Source of the DNA: an uncultured Porphyromonadaceae bacterium
Lineage (GTDB): Bacteria; Bacteroidota; Bacteroidia; Bacteroidales; Muribaculaceae
Reading direction: 5' to 3'
DNA: 64,000 nucleotides
NCBI GenBank assembly: GCA_947174915.1
Contig: CAMWKV010000001.1
Location: forward strand, 408 to 64,407
Shown here: in pieces, positions 3,065 through 22,797 of the stretch
Position numbering within the stretch: the stretch's first letter is position 1
Layout: each line of letters opens with the position of its first letter
Made by a program: the position numbers and the translations under genes
Notes under the pieces: model-generated
The model's input: only the letters and a program-made list of their open reading frames with translations
The model's database searches: none
Told to the model about the DNA's origin: nothing

Positions 3065-4045
3065 TTAGGAGTGGTATTTTACGAGCCAGTAACCGGTCTT
3101 GTTCGACCCGACACGCTCCAGCCATCCGGCAGATTTCAGCTTGCTGATGATTTTCTTGATGCTGCCCTCAGATATGCCGGACTGTTCTGAAAGTTCAATT
3201 TTTGTCAGCCGCGGATTGTCCGTCAGAAGCTTAAGCACCGCCAGCTCCGATTTATCGGGCACTTTATCGGATACTTTATCGGATACTTTATCGGATACTT
3301 TGCCCCGCAAGGTATTCAATATTTCCCTGAGCATAAAATCAATAAACGGCCCGGACTGACCTTCCCTGGTCGATGCTGCGATAGCATCATAGTACTCTTG
3401 CTGATTAGAGTACACCATATTTTCTATCGGCAAATGTTCAAAAATCGGACTCAACCGCCCGAGAATCAATGACTGCCACAGGCGGCCTGTGCGACCGTTC
3501 CCATCAGAAAACGGATGAATAAATTCGAACTCATAATGGAACACACAAGATCGAATGAGTAGATGGTCATCGGCGTCCTTTAGCCATTTAAAAAGATCCG
3601 CCATCAATTCGGGAATACGAGATGCCGGCGGTGCCATGTGTACGAGACCTCTTTCGCCGAACACCCCTACACCACCTCTGCGATAACATCCGGCATCGTC
3701 AGCCAATGCCTCCATCATAATGCCATGCGCCCTCAGCAAATCTTTCTCTGAGAACGGATTGAGTTCTGAATAAATATCATAAACCCGTATTGCATTTTTT
3801 ACCTCATGGATTTGACGCAAGGGAGCCACTATATGTTTACCGTCAATAATATCCCTTACCTCATCTTCTGTGAGAGTATTACCTTCAATAGCAAGCGAAG
3901 AATGAATCGTCTTGATACGATTAGCTTTGCGCAACTTCAGACCGTCCTCTCCTTCCACACGAATACTGTGTCGCTCTAAAAGCGCAGAAATCTCAGCTAT
4001 ATAGTTGATAGCTTTAGCGGAGATTTTGAAAGGAGGGCTTGGCAT
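3065..4045 (-). CDS. fic: Fic-family protein (intramolecularly inhibited type) with C-terminal HTH
   Basis: Catalytic HPFSDGNGRTGR, N-terminal inhibitory-type SLAIEG (S/TxxxEG/N) and a C-terminal wHTH-like segment (LTKIELSEQSGISEGSIKKIISKLK...GYW). Confidence 0.9.
   Translation of the reverse strand: MPSPPFKISAKAINYIAEISALLERHSIRVEGEDGLKLRKANRIKTIHSSLAIEGNTLTEDEVRDIIDGKHIVAPLRQIHEVKNAIRVYDIYSELNPFSEKDLLRAHGIMMEALADDAGCYRRGGVGVFGERGLVHMAPPASRIPELMADLFKWLKDADDHLLIRSCVFHYEFEFIHPFSDGNGRTGRLWQSLILGRLSPIFEHLPIENMVYSNQQEYYDAIAASTREGQSGPFIDFMLREILNTLRGKVSDKVSDKVSDKVPDKSELAVLKLLTDNPRLTKIELSEQSGISEGSIKKIISKLKSAGWLERVGSNKTGYWLVKYHS
3251..3301. repeat. 12-bp in-frame tandem repeat (about 4 copies) inside fic
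   Basis: TTTATCGGGCAC followed by 3x TTTATCGGATAC. Encodes VSDK-VSDK-VSDK-VPDK. Confidence 0.9.
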
Positions 4046-4072: not shown

Positions 4073-4627
4073 TTACTTGCGGCGGGGGCGGATGAGGGGG
4101 CGGTGGTCGGCGATGACGTAGTCGACGGGGATGTCGAAATCCTCGGCGTCAATTTCGTCGTAGAGCTGGAAGTCGTAGCAGACACCTATGGTGATGGCGC
4201 GACTGCGGCTCAACAGACGGTCGTAGTAGCCTTTGCCACGCCCCACACGATTGCCGTCGCGGTCGTAGGCCACGGCAGGCACAATGACGAGGTCTATGTC
4301 ATCAATATCTACGGTGTCGTCGCCGTCCGGTTCCTCGATGCGGAATGATCCGAGGTGAGTGCGCGTGCGTTCGTAGGGCAGTATCTCGAGGTCGAGACCA
4401 TTGACACGAGGCAGATAGTAGGTCTTGCCCTCAGCGCCGCGGGCGAGGAATTCGTGGGTGGATAGTTCGTCCGGCAGAGAGTGATATAGCAGTACTCGCT
4501 CGGCCATCACGTAGGCCGCCATGCGGCGCAGACGGGCGAATACACGACGGGCGGCGGCGATGCGCTCGGCATCGTCGAGCATGGCCTTGCGGGCCCGTAC
4601 CTGGCGGCGGATGTCTTCTTTATTCAT
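4073..4627 (-). CDS. ygfA: 5-formyltetrahydrofolate cyclo-ligase
   Basis: YYLPRV, FRIEEP, DLVIVPAVAYDRDGNRVGRGKGYYDRLL. Confidence 0.92.
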   Translation of the reverse strand: MNKEDIRRQVRARKAMLDDAERIAAARRVFARLRRMAAYVMAERVLLYHSLPDELSTHEFLARGAEGKTYYLPRVNGLDLEILPYERTRTHLGSFRIEEPDGDDTVDIDDIDLVIVPAVAYDRDGNRVGRGKGYYDRLLSRSRAITIGVCYDFQLYDEIDAEDFDIPVDYVIADHRPLIRPRRK

Positions 4628-6278
4628 TGTCGGTTTGCTTGTTAAGGTCTTCCGCCCCGTCGCGCAAAGGATGGTCGGCGCCTCCGGACTGCAACTGCCG
4701 GAGAGCCTCCTGAACGACAGGGTCGGTATTGTTGACTACCTCGAAGTAGCCATCCATGCCGACAATGTCGCGCGCGATGAGGGCTTTGATTTGATTAACA
4801 ATCAATTTACCCGAAATGTTGATATAATACCAGCGGGGTGATACCTTGCCAATGTTGTAGGCATAGTTGACAAAGGACTGAAGGAGGACATTGTCTGACG
4901 GCAACTGTGCCAGCAGCTCGCCCGTGTCGCGGCTCTCGTTGAGGCTCTCGCGGTTGAGGTCGGCGTACTCGTAGGCGAACTTGCGGATAAGGCCCTCATT
5001 GGCCACCTTGAGATAGTAGGAGGTGACACCGGTGGTGTCGGAGGGCACGAAGACATCGGGTATGATACCGCCGCCGCCATAGACTGCACGGCCAGTAGTA
5101 GTGTGGAAGATGAGCGTGCTGTCGACACGTACGCTGTCGGCGGTGAATATCTCGCCGCGGTCGTAGCGGTCGAGGATTTCGGTCTCATACTCGCGGCTGT
5201 GCCCGGGGCTGTAGGTCTTCTGTATGCAACGTCCCGAGGGGGTGTAGTAGCGCTGCACCGTGAGGCGGAAGGCGCTGTTATCGGGCAGCTCGAAAGGACT
5301 CTGCACCAGACCTTTGCCGAAGCTGCGGCGACCTATGATGAGTGCGCGGTCGTTGTCCTGCAGCGCACCGGCCACAATCTCGCTGGAGCTGGCTGTGAAC
5401 TCGTCGATAAGCACCACTACGGGCTCCTCGACAAAGGAGCCCAAGCCGTCGCTCACCATGATGTTGCCCTCGGACTGATTGCGTCCCTTGGTGCTGACTA
5501 CTATGCGGCCGGGCTCGAGGAACTCGTTGGCAATGAGTACGGCAGGATTCATGAAGCCGCCGCCGTTGCCGCGGAGGTCGAGGACGAAACGCTTGGCACC
5601 GTCGTAGCGGAGCTGTCCGAGGGTGGTGAAGAGCTCTGTGTAGGCATTGTCGGAGAACTTGCCCAGGCGTATATATCCCGTGCTGTCGTTGAGCATATAC
5701 GAGGCATCGATGGGCGACACGGGCACTTCGCCGCGCACAATCTCCATGCTCAGAGGCGTGGGCGAACTGTGGCGAAGCACCGTCACGGTGACGCGTGTAT
5801 CCTTGTCGCCGCGCAGGAGGCCGTATAGATGCTCCGTCTCGGCCTTGACGCCCGCGATATTCTCGCCGTCGACGGCAATAATCTTGTCGCCGGGTAGCAT
5901 CCCGGCCTCGTCGGCACCGGCACCGCTGATTACTTCGAGCACGCATAGAGTGTCGTTAATCATCTGGAACTGAATACCCACGCCATAGAAGGAGCCTTCG
6001 AGGTCGCGATCGACGGCCACACGGTCTTCGGCCGGGATATAGGCCGAGTGCGGGTCGAGATTGCGCAGCAATTCGGGAAGGGTCAGCTCCACAAGGCTGT
6101 CCATATCCACATCGTCCACATAGCGGGTGGCAATGATATCGAGGACGTCATTGAGCTTCTGCCGGGAGGGTGAGAGCGGCGATGTGGTACTCAGTGCACG
6201 ACCCATCCATAAGCCGGCTATGAGAAAAAGTGCTGCCACCACGGGCAGCCACAGCATGTATTTTCTATTCTGATTCAT
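4620..6278 (-). CDS. S41 family C-terminal processing protease with PDZ domain
   Basis: LDPHSAY, GVGIQF PDZ, LDLRGNGGG, ASSSEIVAGALQD, GRRSFGKGLVQ. Start moved to MNQNRKY (6278), which is followed by a TM/signal segment. Confidence 0.9.
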   Translation of the reverse strand: MNQNRKYMLWLPVVAALFLIAGLWMGRALSTTSPLSPSRQKLNDVLDIIATRYVDDVDMDSLVELTLPELLRNLDPHSAYIPAEDRVAVDRDLEGSFYGVGIQFQMINDTLCVLEVISGAGADEAGMLPGDKIIAVDGENIAGVKAETEHLYGLLRGDKDTRVTVTVLRHSSPTPLSMEIVRGEVPVSPIDASYMLNDSTGYIRLGKFSDNAYTELFTTLGQLRYDGAKRFVLDLRGNGGGFMNPAVLIANEFLEPGRIVVSTKGRNQSEGNIMVSDGLGSFVEEPVVVLIDEFTASSSEIVAGALQDNDRALIIGRRSFGKGLVQSPFELPDNSAFRLTVQRYYTPSGRCIQKTYSPGHSREYETEILDRYDRGEIFTADSVRVDSTLIFHTTTGRAVYGGGGIIPDVFVPSDTTGVTSYYLKVANEGLIRKFAYEYADLNRESLNESRDTGELLAQLPSDNVLLQSFVNYAYNIGKVSPRWYYINISGKLIVNQIKALIARDIVGMDGYFEVVNNTDPVVQEALRQLQSGGADHPLRDGAEDLNKQTDNE

Positions 6279-6286
6279 GATTTCGG

Positions 6287-6709
6287 TCAATCGAGAGAAG
6301 ATATATGCACGCACTCCACGCCGGCACGTCGCAGCAGGTCTACGCCGTCGGTGAGACGGTAGAGATCGTTGAACACTACCCTCCTCACTCCCGCCTGGAT
6401 TATCAACTTGGCACATTCGAGGCAGGGCGAGGCCGTGACATACAGTGTCGAGCCCTCGGACGAATTGTTGCTCCGAGCCACCTTGGTGATGGCATTGGCC
6501 TCGGCATGAAGCACATAGGGCTTGGTGGCGCCGCTATCGTCCTCACACACATTCTCGAACCCGGCCGGTGTACCGTTGTAGCCGTCGGAGATTATCATCT
6601 GGTCGCGCACGAGGATAGCACCCACTTTGCGGCGTTCGCAGTAGGAATTTTCGGCCCAGATAGTGGCCATACGCAGATAGCGGCGATCCAAGAGTATTTG
6701 CTTGTCCAT
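6287..6709 (-). CDS. comEB: dCMP deaminase (ComEB family)
   Basis: SDGYNGTP, HAEANAI and SPCLECAK zinc-deaminase motifs. Confidence 0.9.
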   Translation of the reverse strand: MDKQILLDRRYLRMATIWAENSYCERRKVGAILVRDQMIISDGYNGTPAGFENVCEDDSGATKPYVLHAEANAITKVARSNNSSEGSTLYVTASPCLECAKLIIQAGVRRVVFNDLYRLTDGVDLLRRAGVECVHISSLD

Positions 6710-6881: not shown

Positions 6882-7859
6882 TTACTCGCTTGAGGTAAAT
6901 GGCTCGAGCAGCTTGTAGGGGTCGTTGCGGAAGTCGGCACGCAGTTGCTTGATTGTGTCAATGTTATCTATTGAATCAACCCAATGTTCAAATTCATTAA
7001 ACTTAATAATATCCAAGTGTTTACGCGCGGCCCAAGTATCAAGATAGAAATAAATTGCCCCATTTAGATGCATAATCATATGCTCCTGCTGCGACGGAGT
7101 AACACTGTCGTATAAGCCCATGATTTGCTCATAGAACTTATCATTAATCATAAAAGCCTCTCCAAAATCATCTGAAATACCTTCAGAGGAATCCTCGTTG
7201 GAACAGTTGAAAAGATATTCGCGTATTATATTCATCCGGTCACTATCCATATGCCTAAATTTAGCTTTACCAAACTTCAACATGCTGTCAATAAGACACC
7301 AGTCATGATATGATTTACCCCTATTGTCTATCTCTCGCACCAATATCTTTATAACTCGCTCTCTCTTATCTTCACTCATGGGGAAATAGCGGGGAATGCT
7401 GAGCTTTAAATCATGAAGGTCTTTGACATGCATACTATCAATCCCGGCAAATATATAATCCACAATCATAGATACAGACTCCACAGAAACGATCTCCTTA
7501 GATTCACCTTCTGAATAATAGACTGTTTCTTTAACCGAAGGCGCAATTTTGCCCATCAGTTCACTGATTAGCCTTACTCTATCAGAGTCTGCATCATTTG
7601 ATAAAAGATAATATCTAATCGAATCCATCCGCTCAATATCTGTGATATCGAAGCGCTCAGAAATACGTACCAATGCACTGTCCAAGACTTCGGAGGCCGG
7701 CATAGACGTATTGTGTAATGAAGCACCATCATTAAAAACGGCCATTGTAGTGGAGTCTTCAGTCGACTCATTATTAGCCATGCGACAACTGCCAAGACAC
7801 ACAATTACCACCGTCAATATAATAGACACACAGCGGATGCCTCTCATCAATATATACAT
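6882..7859 (-). CDS. Hypothetical lipoprotein; candidate immunity protein for the upstream RHS toxin
   Basis: AT-rich 325-aa ORF with a lipoprotein-type signal (IILTVVIVCLGS-C), directly downstream of and co-oriented with the RHS gene. No recognisable family. Confidence 0.6.
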   Translation of the reverse strand: MYILMRGIRCVSIILTVVIVCLGSCRMANNESTEDSTTMAVFNDGASLHNTSMPASEVLDSALVRISERFDITDIERMDSIRYYLLSNDADSDRVRLISELMGKIAPSVKETVYYSEGESKEIVSVESVSMIVDYIFAGIDSMHVKDLHDLKLSIPRYFPMSEDKRERVIKILVREIDNRGKSYHDWCLIDSMLKFGKAKFRHMDSDRMNIIREYLFNCSNEDSSEGISDDFGEAFMINDKFYEQIMGLYDSVTPSQQEHMIMHLNGAIYFYLDTWAARKHLDIIKFNEFEHWVDSIDNIDTIKQLRADFRNDPYKLLEPFTSSE

Positions 7860-7926
7860 CTTAATTTATAAATGTTATTAACGTAAAATGGTATTCTCTC
7901 GTTACGAAGCGCTATATATTTACACC

Positions 7927-10900
7927 TCAGAAAGGCTTGTCCTCGGGCTTCTTCCCACATACAAATAATTCCTTTAAGTAATAATGAGCATATGTGACAT
8001 TATACCTATCCTCTAAGGTAACTGGCGTCAAGAGATCATCTGTTACGACCAAGGTCTTTTGCTTTTCTCCAGGAATATATTCCAAATCAGCTTCTGAAGG
8101 ATCGTAACCGACAAGACCTTCAATAACTTCCTTTAGGGTAGCTATATCAACATCCATAATCCTAATACATCCGCGCGTACTAGTTAATTTTGGCCATTGT
8201 GTCTTTCCTCCACCATGTAAGTGCATGCCATTTCTTCCAGCACCTTCTGTACCCTTATAATCTAAAGCAAGTAAATCATTCGGACCAAAAGATCCTGGAT
8301 CATAATTCCAAGGAGGGGTATTTGTTGGCCGCCATCCGGATATCTTATATTCACCTTGCGGAGTGTCACCATATTCAATATCACGCTCTCTATGCTTACC
8401 TGTAACTTTTACCACTGTTCGAAATACCAACTCATCGTGCTGAGAAAAGACAGAAAGAACGGCGTAGGGATTTGCTCCTCTGTCGGAGCTTGCATGGACT
8501 TCTGCATACCACTTCCCGGTGGGGTCTACAAAATTTAGCGGATTGGCGGCGCAGTGGGACCAGGGGGACACGCCGGGATAATCGGCGTAGAGAGGGTCAA
8601 CGGTGTGGAAGCGGGCAAGCAGGGGATCGTGCATACGCGCAATATTATCGTACAAGGCCATACCTTTGTGGTCGATCCATCGGTTGCCGATATGAAGTTG
8701 ATCAGTAGCAGCATCAACTTCGGTGGCAAGGGCTTCGATGGGTAACTGATACGGAGTGCCCGAGGGGTAATACCCTGTAGTCTGTCGAAGATTACCCGCA
8801 GCATCAACTACTGCTACAGTAGAGCCGAGCCGGTCGCGCACGTACCAGTAGTGGGCTTTGCCTTTGAGGTCGTAATGACCCGTGGCTGTATGATAGAGCC
8901 AGCCCTGTGGCGTGCGTTCGAAATTGCCGTGGTAGCGGTAATTCGAGTTTGTTGTCCGCACACGCTCGGTATAAGTCGTATCACCCTTTGAGTCTACTTT
9001 CGTCACCGTCTCAATAGTACGGGTAGAAAATAAGCGGCTATACAGACTACCGTCGGGAAAGTAGGTCGATTGGGTGTACGAACCGTCGGAGGTCTGTATC
9101 CTCTGAGGCAGGTTGCCGAAGGGATGATAGGTGATAGAGGCAATATCACGGGTGGTGTCCTTGATGAGACGTCCGTCTGCATCGTAGACAAGATTGTAGT
9201 AGCCGTTGGTAATATTCGCCACTGCTTCCGATAGAATGGGGGTAGAAGCCACATTCACAGTACCTATCTTACAGCCGTCCATCACGATAGCGGCATCCTG
9301 CACTACATCGCCTCTGTACTTACGAATGATATTGACCACATCGGCATTGCGGTTGGCGGCCATAGTCTCGGACACCTTGTCGTTGTCGGTGCTCATGGCA
9401 CGGAAATGGCCGAATCCATCGTAGCTATAGCTCTCGGTATGGGTGTATTTATTGCTCTTGCCCCATGTCAGAGTTGAGGCATTGGCATAGATATAGCTTG
9501 GTGTACTGTCGGATACAGGCGTGCTGCCGTACAAGGTGGTCTGTGAAAATACCGGTGTGCTTATCTCGGCTACGTTGGAGCGTATATCATAGCCGTACTT
9601 CACGCCGGCTCCCGCCGTATCTTCGCTCAAACGGCCTATTTCATCGTACTTAACATTCTGTACTGCTATAGGTGTCGCTCCGTCGATGGAGACGGTCGAT
9701 GTAAGCAGACGGCCGTTGATATCGAATGTATTCTGTGTCACGGCGGTGTGATGCTCAGTCACATCGCCTCCGTCAAGCAACTCTTCGTATTTTTCCGTGT
9801 GCTTGACCAGATTGCCGACAAAGTCATACTCCATATCTGAGGTAAGACGTAGTGCCTGGTGATTCAAGTCCCAAAGGCATGTGCGCGTCGGATTGCCGCG
9901 GTGGTCGTACTTAAATGCCTTGACGAACACTTCGCCGGTGAGAGACTGCTTCATCAGTGTACCGGTACACAGTCCTTGCTGTGTGTAGGACTCGTTATTA
10001 TAGGCGAACAAGTCCTTTTCTGTAGTGTTTGCCTCGATGATAAAGTCATAGTTGTCGTACATCCAGGCTATATACGGCTGAAAGCCTGCCGGGCCTGAGG
10101 TACCGGGATAGCCCAACTGTGACTCATAGCCGGGTGCCGTATAGTCGGGATCTTCGACGATAACTGAATCGCCGTATTCTGCTTGCAGTGCTTCTCGCGT
10201 CTTGCCGGACAGCGTTACAATGCCTTTCACTGCCGGGCGGAAGCGGCTGTCGTACTTGGTAAGTGTCCACTGGCCGGATTCTCTCTGAGTAGCCGTCGAT
10301 TCGAAGATAACTCGGTTGAGTTTGTCGTAGACATAATGCGTAGCTCCGCAGCCGGGGACTTCTGACGACACACATCGGTGCAATACATCATAGGTGTAGT
10401 GCTGCGCATAGTCGCTCAGCAACGCACCTGGAATATTACCTGAAATCGGCAGTTGCGATGAGCCTTCCGGACTTATCGCATATATCATATCACCGACATT
10501 ATTATATACGAAATAAGTGTCGGCGTAGCTCGATGTACCCTCTGTAGAAATGAGTCGCTGGAGTATCACTCGGTCAAGACGGTCTTTAAAAGTAAGAAGT
10601 TTCTTACCGTCTTCATCCTCTACACATTCCACTCTCAACGACCCGGCCGGGTAATAGCCTTTTACACCTATTAGTGAAAATCGGCCACCGGATGAGCCTT
10701 CATCGGGTCCTATTAAATCGCGAGATTGGACACTACCTCCGGCTGTAAATTGCAAGCAGGCTCTTTCGCCCTTTGTATCATTTTTGTGATGAGATACCTT
10801 TTTACCGTGGTTTTTCCACAAGATGCCCGGTCCTGTCTCAGATTCAAGTCTGTTCAGTCCGCTGCCCTCATAAGTATAGTGGATATATGGCCGTTCGGAT

Positions 10901-11238
10901 TCGCCATAATAAGCTGACGCAACTGCTGTGTATCTTTTATTGCCAAGCAACTCAGCACCACCGGACACCGGTAGCCACTTCTTTCCTACATTACCGCGAC
11001 GGTCATAGTCCGTGCGCACGCCTACTGGATTATTGTTTCCGCCACCATTATCAATCACAGTAAGTCGTTCTCGACCAAGTCCGTCATAATAGACGGATGA
11101 TGTACGTGTCTGTGTCCCTGAGGCATTACAGTACGCCGTAGTCTTGATATAGTTCTGCTGTGCTGATGATATAAAAGCGGTCAGCAGTGCCGTAAGCATT
11201 GTACATCCGACCCGATATGATTTTTTGCTACCTTTCAT
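7927..11238 (-). CDS. DUF6443/RHS repeat-associated core protein with C-terminal YkuD/Tlde1-like L,D-transpeptidase toxin domain
   Basis: Sec signal, then NYIK...YYDGLGR...DYDRRG...WLPVS (DUF6443-like). YD repeats (YTYD..HR, YVYDKLNR, YDHRGN, YDFVGN, YDEIGR, YDADGR). RHS core RMHDPLLARFHTVDP...NPLNFVDPTG. Tip has HGG-x13-C (HLHGGGKTQWPKLTSTRGCIRI). Confidence 0.88.
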   Translation of the reverse strand: MKGSKKSYRVGCTMLTALLTAFISSAQQNYIKTTAYCNASGTQTRTSSVYYDGLGRERLTVIDNGGGNNNPVGVRTDYDRRGNVGKKWLPVSGGAELLGNKRYTAVASAYYGESERPYIHYTYEGSGLNRLESETGPGILWKNHGKKVSHHKNDTKGERACLQFTAGGSVQSRDLIGPDEGSSGGRFSLIGVKGYYPAGSLRVECVEDEDGKKLLTFKDRLDRVILQRLISTEGTSSYADTYFVYNNVGDMIYAISPEGSSQLPISGNIPGALLSDYAQHYTYDVLHRCVSSEVPGCGATHYVYDKLNRVIFESTATQRESGQWTLTKYDSRFRPAVKGIVTLSGKTREALQAEYGDSVIVEDPDYTAPGYESQLGYPGTSGPAGFQPYIAWMYDNYDFIIEANTTEKDLFAYNNESYTQQGLCTGTLMKQSLTGEVFVKAFKYDHRGNPTRTCLWDLNHQALRLTSDMEYDFVGNLVKHTEKYEELLDGGDVTEHHTAVTQNTFDINGRLLTSTVSIDGATPIAVQNVKYDEIGRLSEDTAGAGVKYGYDIRSNVAEISTPVFSQTTLYGSTPVSDSTPSYIYANASTLTWGKSNKYTHTESYSYDGFGHFRAMSTDNDKVSETMAANRNADVVNIIRKYRGDVVQDAAIVMDGCKIGTVNVASTPILSEAVANITNGYYNLVYDADGRLIKDTTRDIASITYHPFGNLPQRIQTSDGSYTQSTYFPDGSLYSRLFSTRTIETVTKVDSKGDTTYTERVRTTNSNYRYHGNFERTPQGWLYHTATGHYDLKGKAHYWYVRDRLGSTVAVVDAAGNLRQTTGYYPSGTPYQLPIEALATEVDAATDQLHIGNRWIDHKGMALYDNIARMHDPLLARFHTVDPLYADYPGVSPWSHCAANPLNFVDPTGKWYAEVHASSDRGANPYAVLSVFSQHDELVFRTVVKVTGKHRERDIEYGDTPQGEYKISGWRPTNTPPWNYDPGSFGPNDLLALDYKGTEGAGRNGMHLHGGGKTQWPKLTSTRGCIRIMDVDIATLKEVIEGLVGYDPSEADLEYIPGEKQKTLVVTDDLLTPVTLEDRYNVTYAHYYLKELFVCGKKPEDKPF

Positions 11239-12320
11239 CGCTTCGTGATTTTTATCGTGTGCAAGCCTTGATCGTTGTAGAGTGCGAATACATATACTCC
11301 ACGAGGGAAGTCTACTAAAGACAATTCAAATGGCACGTTAGATGAAAGACTTCCCGTTCGAAATACTCTGCCGTAGGCATCGCAAAGAATATAGTCCACA
11401 GGCTCGTCCGAGGTATTGAATGTTGGTAAGACTGTGAGAGTTTTTGTCTTTGCGTCCCACTCGATATTTCCTTTTCTGAAAGAACCATCGCCCGGCACCT
11501 CTGTATGATTCACATACTTATTAGTAAAGAAACTCTTTTTCAGTATATCCCGGAGACATTCATTCACCTGATCGACTTTAATCTTTTCTTCCTGCTGCTT
11601 GAGATCAATAGCTTCCCAATGACTGACATAGTCTATTGTATCGCCGGCATGAGATATCATGATATCGGCGGTATATGTTAGCGCAGGGTACCTGTAACCC
11701 GGCACGTACCACTTATTCTCCTCTCCTATATGACGGACTGTGTCGCCGTATTCATACATGAATTCTTCATCTATAGATGTCCTCACGCACTCAACATTCG
11801 TAAGCGTATCACCATCGAAGGTAATCAACTTTGTATCACGGGTCATGCAGGAACTTTCCAGGCCTTTGGAGGTGAACTGTCCTATGCGAGCTATAAGTCC
11901 GCTTGTCTTTAACTCGTGAACAGTAAGCGTGTCCATATATGTATTATATGGAATAGCCGACAGATAGATTCTTCTCTGGCCGGGTTGAAAACTGCGATTT
12001 TTATACAGTTGATTATCCACTGTTGCCAGACCAATATTTCTGCGCCCCACAGCAATAATCATAGTTGTAAGAGTATCTTCCTTCGCCGGCTTGCAAACTC
12101 GGAACTCCGACTCTGACGTCATTGTAGCGTTGGAGAGATCTATACACTCATCAACCGAGGGCTGTGACACAACAACATTGCTCAATTCCAGCAGCGTCAA
12201 CTCATCACCTATACGCGGAGAGTTCAATTCGGGACTCACACCAAATGCCGCCAGAATGGACGCACTCAGCACTGACACCAAGCTGCAAAAGTTAATCATT
12301 ATAATTTTCATCCGTCGCAT
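11235..12320 (-). CDS. T9SS type A sorting-domain protein within the RHS operon
   Basis: Signal peptide; GDTLTNVECV...WYVPGYRYP core; C-terminal LCDAYGRV...LVDFPRGVYVFAL...TIKITKR CTD. Overlaps both neighbouring genes. Confidence 0.75.
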   Translation of the reverse strand: MRRMKIIMINFCSLVSVLSASILAAFGVSPELNSPRIGDELTLLELSNVVVSQPSVDECIDLSNATMTSESEFRVCKPAKEDTLTTMIIAVGRRNIGLATVDNQLYKNRSFQPGQRRIYLSAIPYNTYMDTLTVHELKTSGLIARIGQFTSKGLESSCMTRDTKLITFDGDTLTNVECVRTSIDEEFMYEYGDTVRHIGEENKWYVPGYRYPALTYTADIMISHAGDTIDYVSHWEAIDLKQQEEKIKVDQVNECLRDILKKSFFTNKYVNHTEVPGDGSFRKGNIEWDAKTKTLTVLPTFNTSDEPVDYILCDAYGRVFRTGSLSSNVPFELSLVDFPRGVYVFALYNDQGLHTIKITKR

Positions 12321-15300
12321 AGTGATATTCGTATTTAGAAATGAGATAGTTGTTGAAATCTCTTATCGAGGTGAGACGTCCCTGATCATCGTAACCATTA
12401 GTGGTATGCACACCACGTCCATCGGTGAGGCGAAGAATACCATTGAACCAATCATAACTGATCGCCGTAATAGTATTATTCGGGAAATAATCACGCATAC
12501 GACCGGCAATTGCTGATATTCGTGCGTCGCTTGCAATTCCTTGCGCATTAATCTCGGCTCCAAGCAGACCATACTTGGCAGTAGCTGCCGTAAGTGTGTT
12601 AAAATCTATTCCAGTTGCTTCAAGCACGGGGTAAAGTCCATTGTAACCCCAAATATATGACGCCAATACAACATCTTTGTAGGATATTTGTATAAGATTA
12701 CCTTTGGCGTTATATCGATAAGAAAATGTCGGATTATTGATTTTACTTTTCTGAGTGCTTGTCGTGATTCCGTTGGACGATATCAAGTCGCTCAGAGCGC
12801 ACGAGCCGGACAGAGTATACTTCCTCAGAGGTAACATAGCCGCGGCATCATACTCTATGCGTTCAGCGGATATTACATGACTGCCGGCCCCCGTTACTAC
12901 TGTCTCGGGATAGGGTAAGCGTAAACCATTTTTTGATAAATAGGTATAGTAAGTTGTGATTTCAAGACCGCTTGCATCAGTCTCTGTCACAGATTTCACC
13001 AAGCCATAGTCAGTATTCTCGGTATATGAGTCATAGAAATACTCGAAAGTCTTGTATGAATTTATTCCATCTTCTTCAATTGAATGTACGCAACTTACGG
13101 TCTTATTATATGGAATTAGAGTATATTGCCCAATTCCATAGTCATATCCGCCTGTCTGTACATCTCGTGTATAGTCACAATATGCAAATGCATCCGTTGT
13201 AAGAAATGGTAACTCTGAGGATTCGTTGATATTGTAATAATACTCCGTGGTATGAATAGGTGTCGTGCCATTATATATATGATGTTTCTCCAAATTGCCG
13301 CGCCTATGCGCCATTGAAGTGTACATCCGAGAACCTACCGGCTGGAACATCCAGAACGGATTATTAATGTAATCGCAATTTCCTTCAGTCATTGCACTGG
13401 AATACGTGAATACTTCCGACATTGAACTTAAATAAGAATCCGTATTTTCTCTAATCTCACCACCCATACACACTCTAACTTTGGGGTATTCAATTGAGGA
13501 AAACGTACCTATTACTGTATTCGGGAAAGCAGCACTACTGGCACAATATACTGTACAGAATGTATTACCTATCTCCACCGGACTCGGATATGATATATAA
13601 TACTTGTAGCCATACTCAGGCAACAATTGTACCGTTCCGGTAGTTGCTGTAGGATGACGGTCTGTATTATAATAATAGTCCTTTCTCAACGGCTCATCTT
13701 CCGGATCACCTGTTGCGGATTTTATTCGCTTGATTCGCATACCACACCAGTAATCACGCCCATCGCCAACATTGGTATCTAATGTTGATTTACTGACATA
13801 TATATAACCGGATTCACTATTTTGATAATAGCAATTTCTATCTATAAAATCTTCTTCTCCTTGAATCGCATTTGGATACTTAAGTTCAAAGTCATAAGTC
13901 CCAGGCTCAAGGGAGAGATTTATGGGTTGTGTACGACCTTCAATAGTCTCTTTGTCCAAGAAATATACTTTTTCTATTTTTCTTTCACCATTCGTCTGAT
14001 GGTGACGAATAACTACATGGGGGTAATATGGAGGAAATACTTCGTTATATCCTATCTCCCCATGTCGATCAACATATGATGTATTATATAAATAACCTTT
14101 TTCAAACTTGAAATATTCAGAAAAATCTATTGTAGGTCTTTGTCCATATTCAATCTTCCAATTTGTGAGTTCGCACTTTGAGTACCCTTTTTCCACACAA
14201 TATCGTAGTGTATCTGTAACGACTTTCAATACATAATCATCTGAATTTATCGTTCCGTGATATTCTGCAGACTTTACATGGCTGAATGTATTGTTCTCCC
14301 ACTCAAATTCTGTATATCCACCGGTCGGATAGGTAATTTTTGTCAACTCAAGTGTATGCGCATAATCAAGGGAAACGCTACGGTCCGCGCCGCGACCCAC
14401 GACCTTACTATCTATGAAAACATCGGGTATAATCGAACCGATATTCTCATTGCAATAACCTCCAAAATCCTGAGATTCAGCGTAGAGTTCCTCTCCCCAC
14501 TCCTTATTGTATTCAAACGAGTACACCTTTTGCTCGCCATCTTGTATAGACACAAGCAAATTTCGGTCATAATTAAAGGTATAGATACGATGCTTACCGT
14601 CGGGAGCGGAAATATCAATTGAACCTATAAGAGCATCAGCCTTGGAGGCATTACCCTCATTGAGGTAATTGAATTTAACCTTGATTCCATTGGCTTCTAT
14701 CTCATCCAATAACTGAGGATGATAGATAATACCCCTTAGGGAACTTACTTCTTTAGGGCAGAACGTACCAACCACATCAGTTCCAAAATCTCTAACTACT
14801 GTATTCCCTACATTTATTATATCGCGCTGACTTCTTTCCTTATATTTAAAGTTAACCGTGTTGCCGGATAAGTCAGTTATTTTATCCAAATGCCATGCCG
14901 AAGCATAATATACACTATCCGCGGATCTATCAATAAGCGGATTACCATAATAATAATCATATCGCGTCCTGTCTTGAGTAAGGAATTCATATTGTATACC
15001 TTTATCATCCGTCACAAGAAATCCCCAACCATCGCAACCTCCGTCAGTTATCTTTGGAATATCATTAGTCTTGGATATTTTCAAAGGAGCGTCAGAGGAT
15101 ATTGTCACCTTGCCATTTTTATCCCTGACAAACGTTGCCGACATATTATAACCCATAAGATTGAATATGTCGTTAGCTATATCGGTTTGACCTTTATAAT
15201 AACTATCGCCTAACGTCGTCTGCCAATATCTATCTCTCTTATACCCCACAGGATCCTGTGGATCAGAGAATTGCTTTTCGGTTAATTTTTTACGAAATTC

Positions 15301-15696
15301 AAGTTCATCGGACGTTAGGTGATAAAATCCACGCAATTTAACACTTTCATTTGCATCATCAGGAGCACCGTAGACAGTATGCGAAATCGTTGCACCACAC
15401 ATTACACTCCAACTTAGGCCTGCATTACCTATCTTTTGATCGGCTCGCACGCCACCGCCATGATAAGATATAGTAATTGGCATTTCAATTGCGCCACTCT
15501 TTATCGTATATATAGGGAACGTAATCGAAGGTATTCCATGGTAATAATCAACAGGATAGTCCTTGAAATCCATCAGTGAAGCCACTTCGGGAGATGGAGG
15601 CACGATAGAGTAATCGCGCGGAGCTATACCATCATCGGCATAGCTTGATACCGTTGCTATCAGAAGTAGCAATCCTGCTAACTTTTTGCTTTTCAT
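12292..15696 (-). CDS. Large YD-repeat protein with SpvB/TcB-like N-terminus (RHS partner)
   Basis: Signal peptide, then PPSPEVASL...PVDYYHGIPSITFPIY...ISYHGGG...GLSWSV (SpvB-like). WHLDKITDLSGNTVNFKY, LTKITYPTGGYTEFEWE, and C-terminal YNAKGN, SYIWGYNG, YDDQGRLTSIRD. No RHS core or DPxG. Confidence 0.8.
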   Translation of the reverse strand: MKSKKLAGLLLLIATVSSYADDGIAPRDYSIVPPSPEVASLMDFKDYPVDYYHGIPSITFPIYTIKSGAIEMPITISYHGGGVRADQKIGNAGLSWSVMCGATISHTVYGAPDDANESVKLRGFYHLTSDELEFRKKLTEKQFSDPQDPVGYKRDRYWQTTLGDSYYKGQTDIANDIFNLMGYNMSATFVRDKNGKVTISSDAPLKISKTNDIPKITDGGCDGWGFLVTDDKGIQYEFLTQDRTRYDYYYGNPLIDRSADSVYYASAWHLDKITDLSGNTVNFKYKERSQRDIINVGNTVVRDFGTDVVGTFCPKEVSSLRGIIYHPQLLDEIEANGIKVKFNYLNEGNASKADALIGSIDISAPDGKHRIYTFNYDRNLLVSIQDGEQKVYSFEYNKEWGEELYAESQDFGGYCNENIGSIIPDVFIDSKVVGRGADRSVSLDYAHTLELTKITYPTGGYTEFEWENNTFSHVKSAEYHGTINSDDYVLKVVTDTLRYCVEKGYSKCELTNWKIEYGQRPTIDFSEYFKFEKGYLYNTSYVDRHGEIGYNEVFPPYYPHVVIRHHQTNGERKIEKVYFLDKETIEGRTQPINLSLEPGTYDFELKYPNAIQGEEDFIDRNCYYQNSESGYIYVSKSTLDTNVGDGRDYWCGMRIKRIKSATGDPEDEPLRKDYYYNTDRHPTATTGTVQLLPEYGYKYYISYPSPVEIGNTFCTVYCASSAAFPNTVIGTFSSIEYPKVRVCMGGEIRENTDSYLSSMSEVFTYSSAMTEGNCDYINNPFWMFQPVGSRMYTSMAHRRGNLEKHHIYNGTTPIHTTEYYYNINESSELPFLTTDAFAYCDYTRDVQTGGYDYGIGQYTLIPYNKTVSCVHSIEEDGINSYKTFEYFYDSYTENTDYGLVKSVTETDASGLEITTYYTYLSKNGLRLPYPETVVTGAGSHVISAERIEYDAAAMLPLRKYTLSGSCALSDLISSNGITTSTQKSKINNPTFSYRYNAKGNLIQISYKDVVLASYIWGYNGLYPVLEATGIDFNTLTAATAKYGLLGAEINAQGIASDARISAIAGRMRDYFPNNTITAISYDWFNGILRLTDGRGVHTTNGYDDQGRLTSIRDFNNYLISKYEYHYATDENYND

Positions 15697-21129: not shown

Positions 21130-22797
21130 TTAGTTGGGGCGGAGGAGGGAGTTGTAGCGAGCGGGGTCGAGGAGGATGGCGCGGGCGGCGTGGTATGTGC
21201 TGTCGGTGCCCAAGGCGAGACGCACAGCCTCGGCATTGCTGTAGTAGCGTGCGGCGAGCTCGGTGCGGAGAAGCTCGGTGATAGCCTCGCGGTTGAAGTC
21301 GAGGTCGTGGTTGAGGTCGTGCTTCATCAGCCCGGCGAGGATATCAATCTGCGCCGACACGCTGTCCGACTCATAGCCTTCGATTCGAGCCGCCTTGCGG
21401 AGCAGCTCGATAGCGGCCTCACTCTGACGGTCGTACTGCAGCCGCGACGGGTCGATAAAGGCTTTGAAATCAGCAAAGATACTATCGGTGACAAGGCTGT
21501 CGCCAGGGGCGGGAGCCTGCGGATGACGCGCCACATGACGTGTAGCATAGTCGTAGACCCACATATCAGCCATGAGATTGTAGAGCAGACGGTTAGACTC
21601 GCGCGGAGCTACGCTGACATCGGGAGTGATGCCGCCGCCATCGCGCACAGTACGGCCATGGACAGTCTTGTAGACGTTGGTGAGGCTGTCAGGGGTGCGC
21701 ATGGGGCGTCCATCAGCATCGCGGTGACTGTAGTCAAGAGCCTGGATTAGACGGCCGGAGGGTATGTAATAGCGGGCAGTCGTAATCTTGAGAATGTCGC
21801 CGAAAGGCAGCGGACGGGGCGTCTGCACGAGACCTTTGCCGAAGGAACGTTCGCCCACGATGACGGCGCGGTCGAGGTCCTGGAGCGAACCGGCGACAAT
21901 CTCCGAGGCCGAAGCCGTACCACCGTCGGTAAGGATAGCCAGGGGCACACGCGTATCAAGCGGTGCAGCAGTGGTGCGGTAGCTCTTCTCGTCGGAAGCT
22001 ATACGGCCGCGGGTGTGTACAATCTCGGTACCCTTGGGCACGAATAGTCCGGCTATCTGCACGGCACCTTCGAGGAGACCGCCGCCGTTGGAGCGGAGGT
22101 CCAGAACAATGCCTTTGAGCTCGGGGTCCTTCAGCATCTCCTCCACGGCGTGGCGTACGCTGCGGGCGGAGCTCTCATTGAATGTGGTGAGAAGGATATA
22201 TCCCACGCCGGTACTGTCCACTCCGAAGTAAGGCAGCGGATTGACCTTGATGGATGCGCGCTTGAAGGCGAAAGTGAGTATAGAGTCGGCACCGACATAG
22301 GGGCGACGCACTGTGACGGTGATATCCGTACCGGCTTGGCCGCGCAGTCGCTTCGACACCTGCGTCACGTCCATGGCGGGAGTGACTGAGTCGCCGTCGA
22401 TGACGAGTATCACGTCGCCTCGGCGCAGCCCGGCCTTGGCGGCAGGGGCATCCTCTTGAGGCTCGTTGATGATGACCTCGCTGCCCTTTTTGGTGATGAC
22501 GGCGCCGATACCGGCATAGCGACCTTCGGAAATCTGCTGAAGCTCATCCTGGTCGCCGGCAGGATAGTACTCCGTGTAGGGGTCGATCTGATAGAGCAGC
22601 ATGTCTATTGTCTCGTCCATTATCTTGTCGGCATTGAGGGTGTCGACATAGTTCGTCTCGAGCTCTTTGACGATGGCGTTGAGAGAGCGGAGTTTCGAGG
22701 CGAATCTGTCCTTGCGTGCGGCGGCAGGTGTCGTCTGCGACCCTACGGCCACCACGAGAACAATCAGAAGGCTGAGTATGGAGATGATGCGTTTCAT
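21130..22797 (-). CDS. S41 family C-terminal processing protease with PDZ domain (second paralog)
   Basis: IDPYTEY, AGIGAVI, LDLRSNGGGLL, ASASEIVAGSLQD, GERSFGKGLVQ. Start set at MKRIISIL. Confidence 0.9.
   Translation of the reverse strand: MKRIISILSLLIVLVVAVGSQTTPAAARKDRFASKLRSLNAIVKELETNYVDTLNADKIMDETIDMLLYQIDPYTEYYPAGDQDELQQISEGRYAGIGAVITKKGSEVIINEPQEDAPAAKAGLRRGDVILVIDGDSVTPAMDVTQVSKRLRGQAGTDITVTVRRPYVGADSILTFAFKRASIKVNPLPYFGVDSTGVGYILLTTFNESSARSVRHAVEEMLKDPELKGIVLDLRSNGGGLLEGAVQIAGLFVPKGTEIVHTRGRIASDEKSYRTTAAPLDTRVPLAILTDGGTASASEIVAGSLQDLDRAVIVGERSFGKGLVQTPRPLPFGDILKITTARYYIPSGRLIQALDYSHRDADGRPMRTPDSLTNVYKTVHGRTVRDGGGITPDVSVAPRESNRLLYNLMADMWVYDYATRHVARHPQAPAPGDSLVTDSIFADFKAFIDPSRLQYDRQSEAAIELLRKAARIEGYESDSVSAQIDILAGLMKHDLNHDLDFNREAITELLRTELAARYYSNAEAVRLALGTDSTYHAARAILLDPARYNSLLRPN

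Follow-up and report, generated by a model that had tools for sequence, protein, structure and literature searches.

Toxins that carry an L,D-peptidase tip on an RHS protein are not a new idea, since they were predicted in 2012 by Zhang et al. (Biol Direct 7:18, PMC3482391), who described a 'Tox-LD-peptidase' class with the L,D-peptidase fold (PDB 1ZAT), conserved H, S and C residues and a position on RHS repeats. For this class, the authors listed a range including Bacteroidetes, trafficking by 'T2SS, T6SS, TcdB/TcaC' (T2SS and T6SS standing for type II and type VI secretion system), the immunity families Imm16 (DUF2750) and Imm57, and cell-wall damage as the predicted effect (PMC3482391). 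The class itself is a computational prediction. Here, we describe a locus of this kind in 64,000 nucleotides of DNA from an uncultured Porphyromonadaceae bacterium (Muribaculaceae in the GTDB lineage; NCBI GenBank assembly GCA_947174915.1, contig CAMWKV010000001.1, positions 408 to 64,407 of the forward strand), a stretch that is referred to as the window throughout. Within it, a 1103-amino-acid (aa) RHS protein ends in a C-terminal tip which, as judged from its sequence, is a YkuD-superfamily domain with an intact His1008/Cys1024/Arg1026 active-site motif and belongs to the class predicted in 2012 rather than to a new one.

Three groups of described enzymes serve as points of reference. The T6SS effector Tlde1a (Tae5) of Salmonella has an altered L,D-transpeptidase fold with the catalytic residues H121 and C131 (PMC9638812), combines L,D-carboxypeptidase with D-amino-acid exchange activity, and is toxic in the periplasm in a Cys/His-dependent manner (PMC9638812; bioRxiv 10.1101/2020.02.18.954545). 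Csd6 of Helicobacter pylori contains an L,D-transpeptidase-like catalytic domain, yet acts as an L,D-carboxypeptidase (bioRxiv 10.1101/2020.02.18.954545). The canonical L,D-transpeptidases, finally, follow the YkuD motif HXX14-17-[S/T]HGCh (PMC9638812), and the authors of the Tlde1 study pointed out that the His-Cys distance is shorter in DUF2778, the family of Tlde1, than in YkuD (bioRxiv 10.1101/2020.02.18.954545).

Assignment of the C-terminal domain

The RHS protein is encoded by an open reading frame (ORF) on the minus strand (11238..7927). The initial annotation, made from the letters of the window, had placed the Asp codon of NFVDPTG at 8524-8526, followed by about 195 residues that contain GDTPQGEY, GRNGMHLHGGG and TSTRGCIRI in a His-x15-Cys arrangement of the YkuD type. 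Mapping by script confirmed this observation in all its parts: NFVDPTG corresponds to residues 902-908, with D905 encoded at 8524-8526; exactly 195 residues (909-1103, window 7930-8514) lead from there to the stop; the three motifs span residues 957-964 (window 8347-8370), 1001-1011 (8206-8238) and 1019-1027 (8158-8184); and 15 residues lie between H1008 and C1024.

The tip reaches 29.0 bits against Pfam YkuD (PF03734; gathering score 23.4, E 1.8e-6), whereby tip residues 26-129 align with positions 19-136 of the 146 positions of the profile. A word-indexed homology search returned four relatives at 46-52% identity, all of which carry a precomputed YkuD annotation and, wherever the N-terminus is present, an RHS tail in front of the tip. 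An exhaustive profile search retrieved 430 clusters at E ≤ 1e-3, including 110 at E ≤ 1e-30, and thereby a large tip family on RHS-type carriers from Bacteroidota and a neighbouring Ignavibacteria group, with carriers that reach ~2500 aa and with the nearest tips in Prevotella, Porphyromonadaceae and other Bacteroidales. The domain forms the very C-terminus of nearly all 153 representatives listed, with a DPxG-[KR]-W junction immediately before it. H1008, T1021, G1023, C1024, R1026, P960 and G962 are invariant in 142-145 representatives and D958 is kept in 144 of 145, while D958, P960, G962 and R1002 are conserved residues of the family's own; the His-Cys gap varies over the family from ~13 to ~27 residues. 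When members were scanned singly, 80 of 91 matched YkuD, with a best E of 5.7e-13.

An AlphaFold2 model of the tip, built from a 91-sequence alignment, attained a pLDDT (predicted local distance difference test) of 89.8 and a pTM (predicted template modelling score) of 0.83. Foldseek, which the initial annotation had named as a check on a YkuD-type fold, indeed found an enzyme of that fold: the sole significant match in the PDB was H. pylori Csd6 (4xzz_A; E 2.3e-4, probability 1.00), with a TMq of 0.54 over 177 columns, 16% identity and a root mean square deviation (RMSD) of 6.8 Å, and an earlier model from a five-sequence alignment (pLDDT 60) likewise gave Csd6 as the top match. That Csd6 stands alone as a YkuD-type match, and at an RMSD of 6.8 Å, indicates a divergent fold. 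With a Pfam score above the cut-off, a catalytic motif conserved across the family and a confident predicted structure that resembles Csd6, the YkuD fold proposed in the initial annotation is near certain.

The motif alone would not have carried this assignment. The bare pattern H-x14-17-[ST]xGC-hydrophobic has one match in the six-frame translation of the window, which is the tip site, and about 1.0 match is expected in each shuffled window, so that the pattern as such does not rise beyond chance; moreover, phmmer with the tip as a single query sequence matched nothing among PDB sequences. Both observations would suit a tip that is a decayed, inactive remnant, or a tip of unrelated function with a motif that arose by chance. 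We disfavour this explanation and consider it very improbable, as all family-invariant residues are intact, the ORF runs uninterrupted up to a stop that relatives share, the Pfam score exceeds its cut-off and the confident model matches a YkuD-fold enzyme. It is the YkuD score, the 80 of 91 relatives that match YkuD, the invariant residues and the fold match that raise the identity of the tip above chance.

Comparison with described enzymes

With the canonical L,D-transpeptidases, here B. subtilis YkuD, E. faecium Ldtfm and M. tuberculosis LdtMt2, the tip shares membership in PF03734 and the motif HXX14-17-[S/T]xGC-h-R, with a spacing of 15. It differs from them in that it has no LysM or peptidoglycan-binding/Ig-like accessory domain, in that its sequence likeness to solved members is detectable at the motif only, and in that it stands in the context of a toxin cassette. 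The residue before Gly-Cys is Arg in the window tip (TRGC), in contrast to His in most relatives (THGC).

The initial annotation had further likened the tip to effectors of the Tlde1 type. This parallel holds as an analogy in fold and probable target, but not as membership in the family: against Pfam Tlde1_dom (PF10908, DUF2778) the tip reaches 14.6 bits at a cut-off of 30.1 (E 0.045), and 15 residues stand between His and Cys instead of 9, on which grounds membership in Tlde1/DUF2778 was rejected. Among the 91 tip relatives, 6 showed weak Tlde1_dom matches, with a best E of 8e-4. The Tlde1 family is further marked by a capping subdomain and a dual-pocket active site (structure 7UMA), and Tlde1a did not appear in the first 50 Foldseek matches of the tip. 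What the tip and Tlde1a have in common is an L,D-transpeptidase-derived toxin fold with catalytic His and Cys; in addition, some DUF2778 members are fused to Rhs. Tlde1a acts in the periplasm of the target and is neutralised by a periplasmic immunity protein, and the same may apply to the tip. Tlde1a is, however, delivered by a T6SS, whereas the carrier in the window has a Sec signal and no T6SS context.

Csd6 (PDB 4XZZ) is the best structural match and a YkuD-type domain that trims tetrapeptides instead of cross-linking them. In contrast to a toxin, Csd6 is a housekeeping cell-shape enzyme without an immunity partner. It is dimeric and has an extra NTF2-like domain.

With Tox-LD-peptidase, the locus shares a predicted thiol peptidase with conserved His, Ser/Thr and Cys at the extreme C-terminus of an RHS protein, a linked gene for immunity (here a candidate) and carriers with a signal peptide ('T2SS'). 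The immunity families Imm16 and Imm57 listed for the class are undetected here, although they are given there as an association and not as a strict defining feature, and neither the DUF6443 N-terminus nor the two-gene shell nor the lipoprotein immunity families presented below are described for it.

The core junction and its cassette

The tip follows directly on the RHS repeat-associated core, whose profile aligns with the core ends of TccC3, YenC2, Tse5, other Rhs proteins and teneurin in PDB sequences. In Tc and Rhs toxins, two aspartates of the core perform C-terminal autoproteolysis. The core of the window protein ends in ...RMHDPLLARFHTVD881P...NFVD905PTG, and by analogy we predict that D881 (HTVDP) and D905 (FVDPTG) are the residues of the aspartyl autoprotease and that the junction for cleavage and recombination lies just before K909-W910.

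The G+C content (GC) is ~0.54 where the core ends, drops to 0.42 for the tip and 0.40 for the gene downstream of it, and returns to ~0.55 beyond 6850, with the break at ~8500 coinciding with the DPxG junction. The tip and the downstream lipoprotein gene form a low-GC cassette, and a drop in GC at the core junction is the signature of a toxin-immunity cassette that is exchanged by recombination at the conserved core.

On a larger scale, the four-gene block 6882-15696 is low in GC compared with its flanks. GC is 0.40 for the 1134-aa gene, 0.44 for the 361-aa gene, ~0.50-0.54 for the RHS core and 0.40-0.42 for the tip with the candidate immunity gene, as against 0.58-0.60 for the flanking S41 peptidase and HAD hydrolase genes. 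These values suggest an acquired island with a mosaic history.

A candidate immunity gene behind the tip

The lipoprotein gene starts 67 bp downstream of the tip gene, and its product begins with a lipoprotein signal (...IILTVVIVCLGSC). In the public gene call (P0154, 287 aa), this protein begins at Met39 and lacks the signal (window 7745-7859); the 60%-identical ortholog P0155 retains the lipobox VCLGGC, which makes the upstream start at 7859 the better reading. No Pfam or NCBIfam family was found for the 325-aa protein. Its C-terminal domain (~residues 182-318) is 37.6% identical to the lipoprotein encoded in locus L010 directly after P0015, the closest tip (E 3.6e-28, BLAST against 10 sequences), and resembles, less closely, the product of the gene that follows P0023 (E 0.007). 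The lipoprotein is likely the cognate immunity protein of the tip. The N-terminal half was also considered as a duplicate of the C-terminal domain, for which there was no support (4.1 bits).

Behind other related tips, the downstream proteins are different and small (160-230 aa). A single family for all of these immunity-like proteins was rejected (hhalign E 0.02, probability 2.4%), and against a hidden Markov model of the window-type domain, the other downstream proteins scored no better than shuffled controls. All ~17 downstream proteins in the related loci nevertheless start with a signal peptide, in most cases one with a lipobox, the lipoboxes being VTSC (L001), NIAC (L003), IVSC (L004), AVSC (L005), LSGC (L010), FYGC (L011), VLSC (L012), VSGC (L014), MISC (L016) and SFAC (L017). 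Exported immunity proteins argue for a toxin that acts outside the cytoplasm, and we regard these exported products as the strongest indirect support for a target in the cell envelope.

In L017 (3001-6927), a 308-aa gene consisting of an RHS tail and a YkuD tip, with no full-length carrier nearby, precedes at least five genes for small secreted proteins, possibly as an orphan toxin with a poly-immunity array.

Proposed mode of action

We consider it probable that the tip is a YkuD-fold polymorphic-toxin domain at the C-terminus of a Sec-exported DUF6443-RHS protein and that it acts on peptidoglycan. A role as a toxin is very likely, whereas periplasmic, peptidoglycan-directed action is inferred and probable; such action, as put forward in the initial annotation, fits both the candidate lipoprotein immunity gene of the window and the exported products downstream of related tips. 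In the mechanism that we propose, the YD shell would house the tip, the core aspartyl protease (D881, D905) would release it, and the tip would be passed into the periplasm of a rival Gram-negative cell, where Cys1024 would attack the bond between residue 3 (the diamino acid) and D-Ala4 in the tetrapeptide stems of peptidoglycan. This attack could trim the stems by L,D-carboxypeptidase action, exchange D-amino acids or create aberrant 3-3 cross-links, comparable to what is seen for Tlde1a and Csd6, by which wall synthesis would be starved or distorted. The producer would be protected by the periplasm-facing lipoprotein encoded at 7859..6882.

Several points weigh against this proposal. Among the top 50 Foldseek matches in the PDB, YkuD, LdtMt2 and Tlde1a are absent and Csd6 is the only YkuD-type entry; when the family profile was run against PDB sequences, B. 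subtilis YkuD appeared at an E of ~1.7 only, over the GCxR motif, the matches being otherwise confined to the RHS-core portion. The immunity proteins beside related tips fall into several families without detectable mutual similarity, and neither the window protein nor 10 downstream proteins matched Imm16 or Imm57 (Pfam, E ≤ 0.1). In addition, the immunity domain of the window type also follows an unrelated tip of the HExxH type, as a separate third gene in L008 and L009 and fused to the immediate downstream protein in L011. This arrangement looks like an orphan immunity left behind by tip replacement, and it leaves the cognate pairing in the window likely rather than proven. Beyond this, the tip family is known from sequence and predicted structure, the enzyme activity and toxicity of its members being predictions, and a Sec-exported RHS protein would need a way across the outer membrane of its target.

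The HExxH-like tips themselves carry the motifs HEIFGHG or HELIGHG (L008 1-2071, L009, L011 3-3901) and are followed by a small secreted protein of their own; in L011, an orphan-style 393-aa RHS-YkuD gene and its own immunity gene come next.

Since canonical YkuD enzymes are housekeeping wall enzymes and the RHS protein is Sec-exported into the periplasm of its producer, the tip could instead be an L,D-transpeptidase with a housekeeping or anchoring role, which fastens the RHS protein or its shell to the producer's peptidoglycan or remodels the producer's wall. We judge this improbable. The tip lies behind the predicted RHS-core autoproteolysis junction, which is where RHS proteins carry toxins, in a low-GC cassette that is bounded at this very junction, and a tightly linked, exported and fast-evolving downstream gene is present in every related locus. 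Furthermore, L002, L011 and L017 contain short RHS-tip genes of an orphan kind and immunity arrays, and the tip is interchangeable with the HExxH tip on the same kind of carrier.

A somewhat more plausible, though still unlikely, departure from the proposed peptidoglycan toxin concerns the substrate. In E. coli, LdtF/DpaA and LdtA-C break or make the links that join Lpp to peptidoglycan. The tip may accordingly be a periplasm-toxic YkuD-fold Cys/His enzyme whose substrate is not the tetrapeptide stem, acting on links between peptidoglycan and outer-membrane proteins or as an endopeptidase on 3-3 cross-links. The fold and motif fix only the chemistry, namely a thiol acyl-enzyme on an L,D peptide bond; the family stands apart from all L,D-transpeptidases of known structure and has invariant residues of its own (D958, P960, G962, R1002); and cross-link hydrolysis, not carboxypeptidase action, was what Zhang et al. 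proposed in 2012 (PMC3482391). On the other side, Tlde1a and Csd6, the sole two characterised toxin-like or trimming relatives, both act on the bond between residue 3 and D-Ala4 of tetrapeptide stems, and the tetrapeptide stem is the substrate that we favour.

Carrier, partner genes and route of delivery

The carrier protein starts with a Sec-type signal (MKGSKKSYRVGCTMLTALLTAFISSA, followed by QQ), behind which lies the DUF6443 domain. Of 12 long carriers of the tip that were scanned, 9 contain DUF6443, 8 of them above the Pfam cut-off, so that this domain appears to be the typical N-terminal module of carriers of the tip family. Although the window RHS protein remains below the cut-off for Pfam RHS_repeat (PF05593; 16.6 bits at a cut-off of 22), it aligns over its full length with relatives that bear RHS repeats and that show a faint TEN_YD-shell match; its alignment with L013_rhs is full-length, at 29% identity over ~1100 residues. 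A phmmer search of the RHS body against PDB sequences gave no match.

No PAAR, VgrG, Hcp or other T6SS Pfam domain was found in ~45 genes scanned across the 64-kb window, and the 12 long tip carriers showed no PAAR, VgrG or other T6SS adaptor. Together with the Sec signal and the DUF6443 N-terminus, this bears out the initial description of the locus as a non-T6SS system, a designation that is well supported for the locus by its gene content while the rest of the genome may hold a T6SS. It is very improbable that the RHS protein is exported, and enters a target, by way of a T6SS.

Upstream of the RHS gene lies a gene for a 1134-aa protein with a Sec signal, of which only the last 40-60 residues match YD repeats; the first ~1000 residues match nothing in Pfam or PDB sequences. 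In L012, L013 (two pairs), L015 and L016, the gene that directly precedes a DUF6443-RHS gene encodes a homologue of ~1030-1660 aa. Moreover, the single-chain proteins P0043 and P0055 (2045 and 2046 aa) have N-terminal halves that are homologous to the 1134-aa protein and C-terminal halves that align with the whole window RHS protein. This gene fusion argues that the 1134-aa and RHS proteins act together, and suggests a two-part YD shell that would be comparable to TcB-TcC in its gene logic.

The comparison with Tc toxins and T6SS Rhs shells rests, on the one hand, on the match of the RHS core and DPxG junction to TccC3, YenC2 and Tse5 and, for TcB-TcC and by gene logic only, on a shell that is split over two genes and fused in some genomes. 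On the other hand, neither an SpvB nor a TcB domain was detected in the 1134-aa partner, and the window contains no TcA-like gene, PAAR or VgrG.

Between the two shell genes, a 361-aa secreted protein is encoded that has a weak C-terminal sorting domain of the type IX secretion system (T9SS) and is possibly an accessory protein. Searches of the 361-aa and 1134-aa proteins against PDB sequences with phmmer gave no match. In L014 (523-1575), a 350-aa gene with a weak Por_Secre_tail match stands directly upstream of the fused 2045-aa homologue; its similarity to the 361-aa window protein is marginal (E ~0.04).

As a tentative proposal, which we hold to be possible but rather doubtful, the tip could be what is delivered by a contact weapon of Bacteroidota that is undescribed and independent of the T6SS. 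This weapon would have a two-protein, Sec-exported YD shell (the 1134-aa protein and the DUF6443-RHS protein), assisted by a small surface protein that the T9SS sorts. No paper was found in a literature search for 'DUF6443', and one for Bacteroidota RHS proteins with T9SS or T6SS-independent delivery found nothing specific.

Genomic neighbourhood

The features of the locus are collected in Table 1. A dCMP-deaminase-like ORF (...HAEANAI...TASPC...; 6287-6709, minus strand) lies between the immunity gene and an S41 peptidase gene. The 598-aa S41 ORF listed from 6416 overlaps it, and the S41 peptidase therefore probably starts at a later Met. This gene (4620-6416, minus strand) is one of two paralogous genes for PDZ-S41 (C-terminal processing) peptidases, the other one being located at 21130-22797 (minus strand), and the RHS block, an Omp85/POTRA protein and a histidine kinase lie between the two. 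A Fic/DOC family protein with a C-terminal winged-helix domain is encoded at 3065-4045 (minus strand), ~3 kb from the RHS cassette. As to the occurrence of window 6882-9500 in public data, no more than one run, from a gut metagenome, reaches even 14% of the sampled 31-mers, which points to a host organism that public data cover poorly.

Table 1. Features of the RHS locus, with coordinates in the window and the evidence on which each call is based.
Feature	Coordinates	Strand	Basis
Whole RHS toxin gene (1103 aa; very likely toxin): Sec-type signal peptide, DUF6443, RHS/YD shell, core, tip	7927..11238	-	ORF, Pfam, alignments
DUF6443 domain, residues 32-151, behind the signal peptide	10786..11145	-	PF20041, E 1.1e-15
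RHS repeat-associated core, residues 854-908, ending NFVDPTG	8515..8679	-	TIGR03696, 35.7 bits at a cut-off of 32.5
C-terminal tip (very likely toxin), residues 909-1103 (195 aa), 'Tox-LD-peptidase' type YkuD-fold Cys/His domain	7930..8514	-	Pfam PF03734, AlphaFold, Foldseek, family
Putative catalytic motif H1008-GGGKTQWPKLTS-T1021-R-G1023-C1024-I-R1026 (His-x15-Cys, TxGCxR)	8161..8217	-	Family invariance, fit to HXX14-17-[S/T]HGCh
Candidate cognate immunity gene, 325-aa lipoprotein, signal ending VCLGSC	6882..7859	-	Lipobox, ortholog, downstream homologues, GC 0.40
361-aa secreted protein, weak T9SS type-A C-terminal sorting domain, between the two shell genes	11235..12320	-	TIGR04183, 17.5 bits, below the cut-off of 23
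1134-aa Sec-signal protein, YD repeats only at the C-terminal end; conserved partner of DUF6443-RHS genes	12292..15696	-	Pfam, homologues

Significance

Three local particulars set this locus apart within the class predicted in 2012: its carrier has DUF6443 and a shell that is split, its lipoprotein immunity families are uncharacterised, and the enzyme structurally closest to its tip is a carboxypeptidase and not a cross-linker. It offers a well-bounded example of a putative L,D-peptidase-fold toxin outside the T6SS world, with putative catalytic residues (H1008, C1024, R1026), a predicted cleavage junction, a candidate immunity gene and a family of ~430 clusters, whereas the sole characterised analogue, Tlde1, belongs to another Pfam family and uses another delivery machine. 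A payload that acts in the periplasm would narrow the demands on DUF6443-RHS delivery to the crossing of the target's outer membrane only. Should the contact weapon considered above exist, it would, given a payload directed at peptidoglycan and antidotes that are lipoproteins, be a device that carries a folded or refolding enzyme across this one membrane and would provide a tractable model for outer-membrane translocation by RHS shells. The DUF6443-RHS route appears widespread in gut and environmental Bacteroidota, and the immunity proteins could mark acquired defence islands in gut Bacteroidales.

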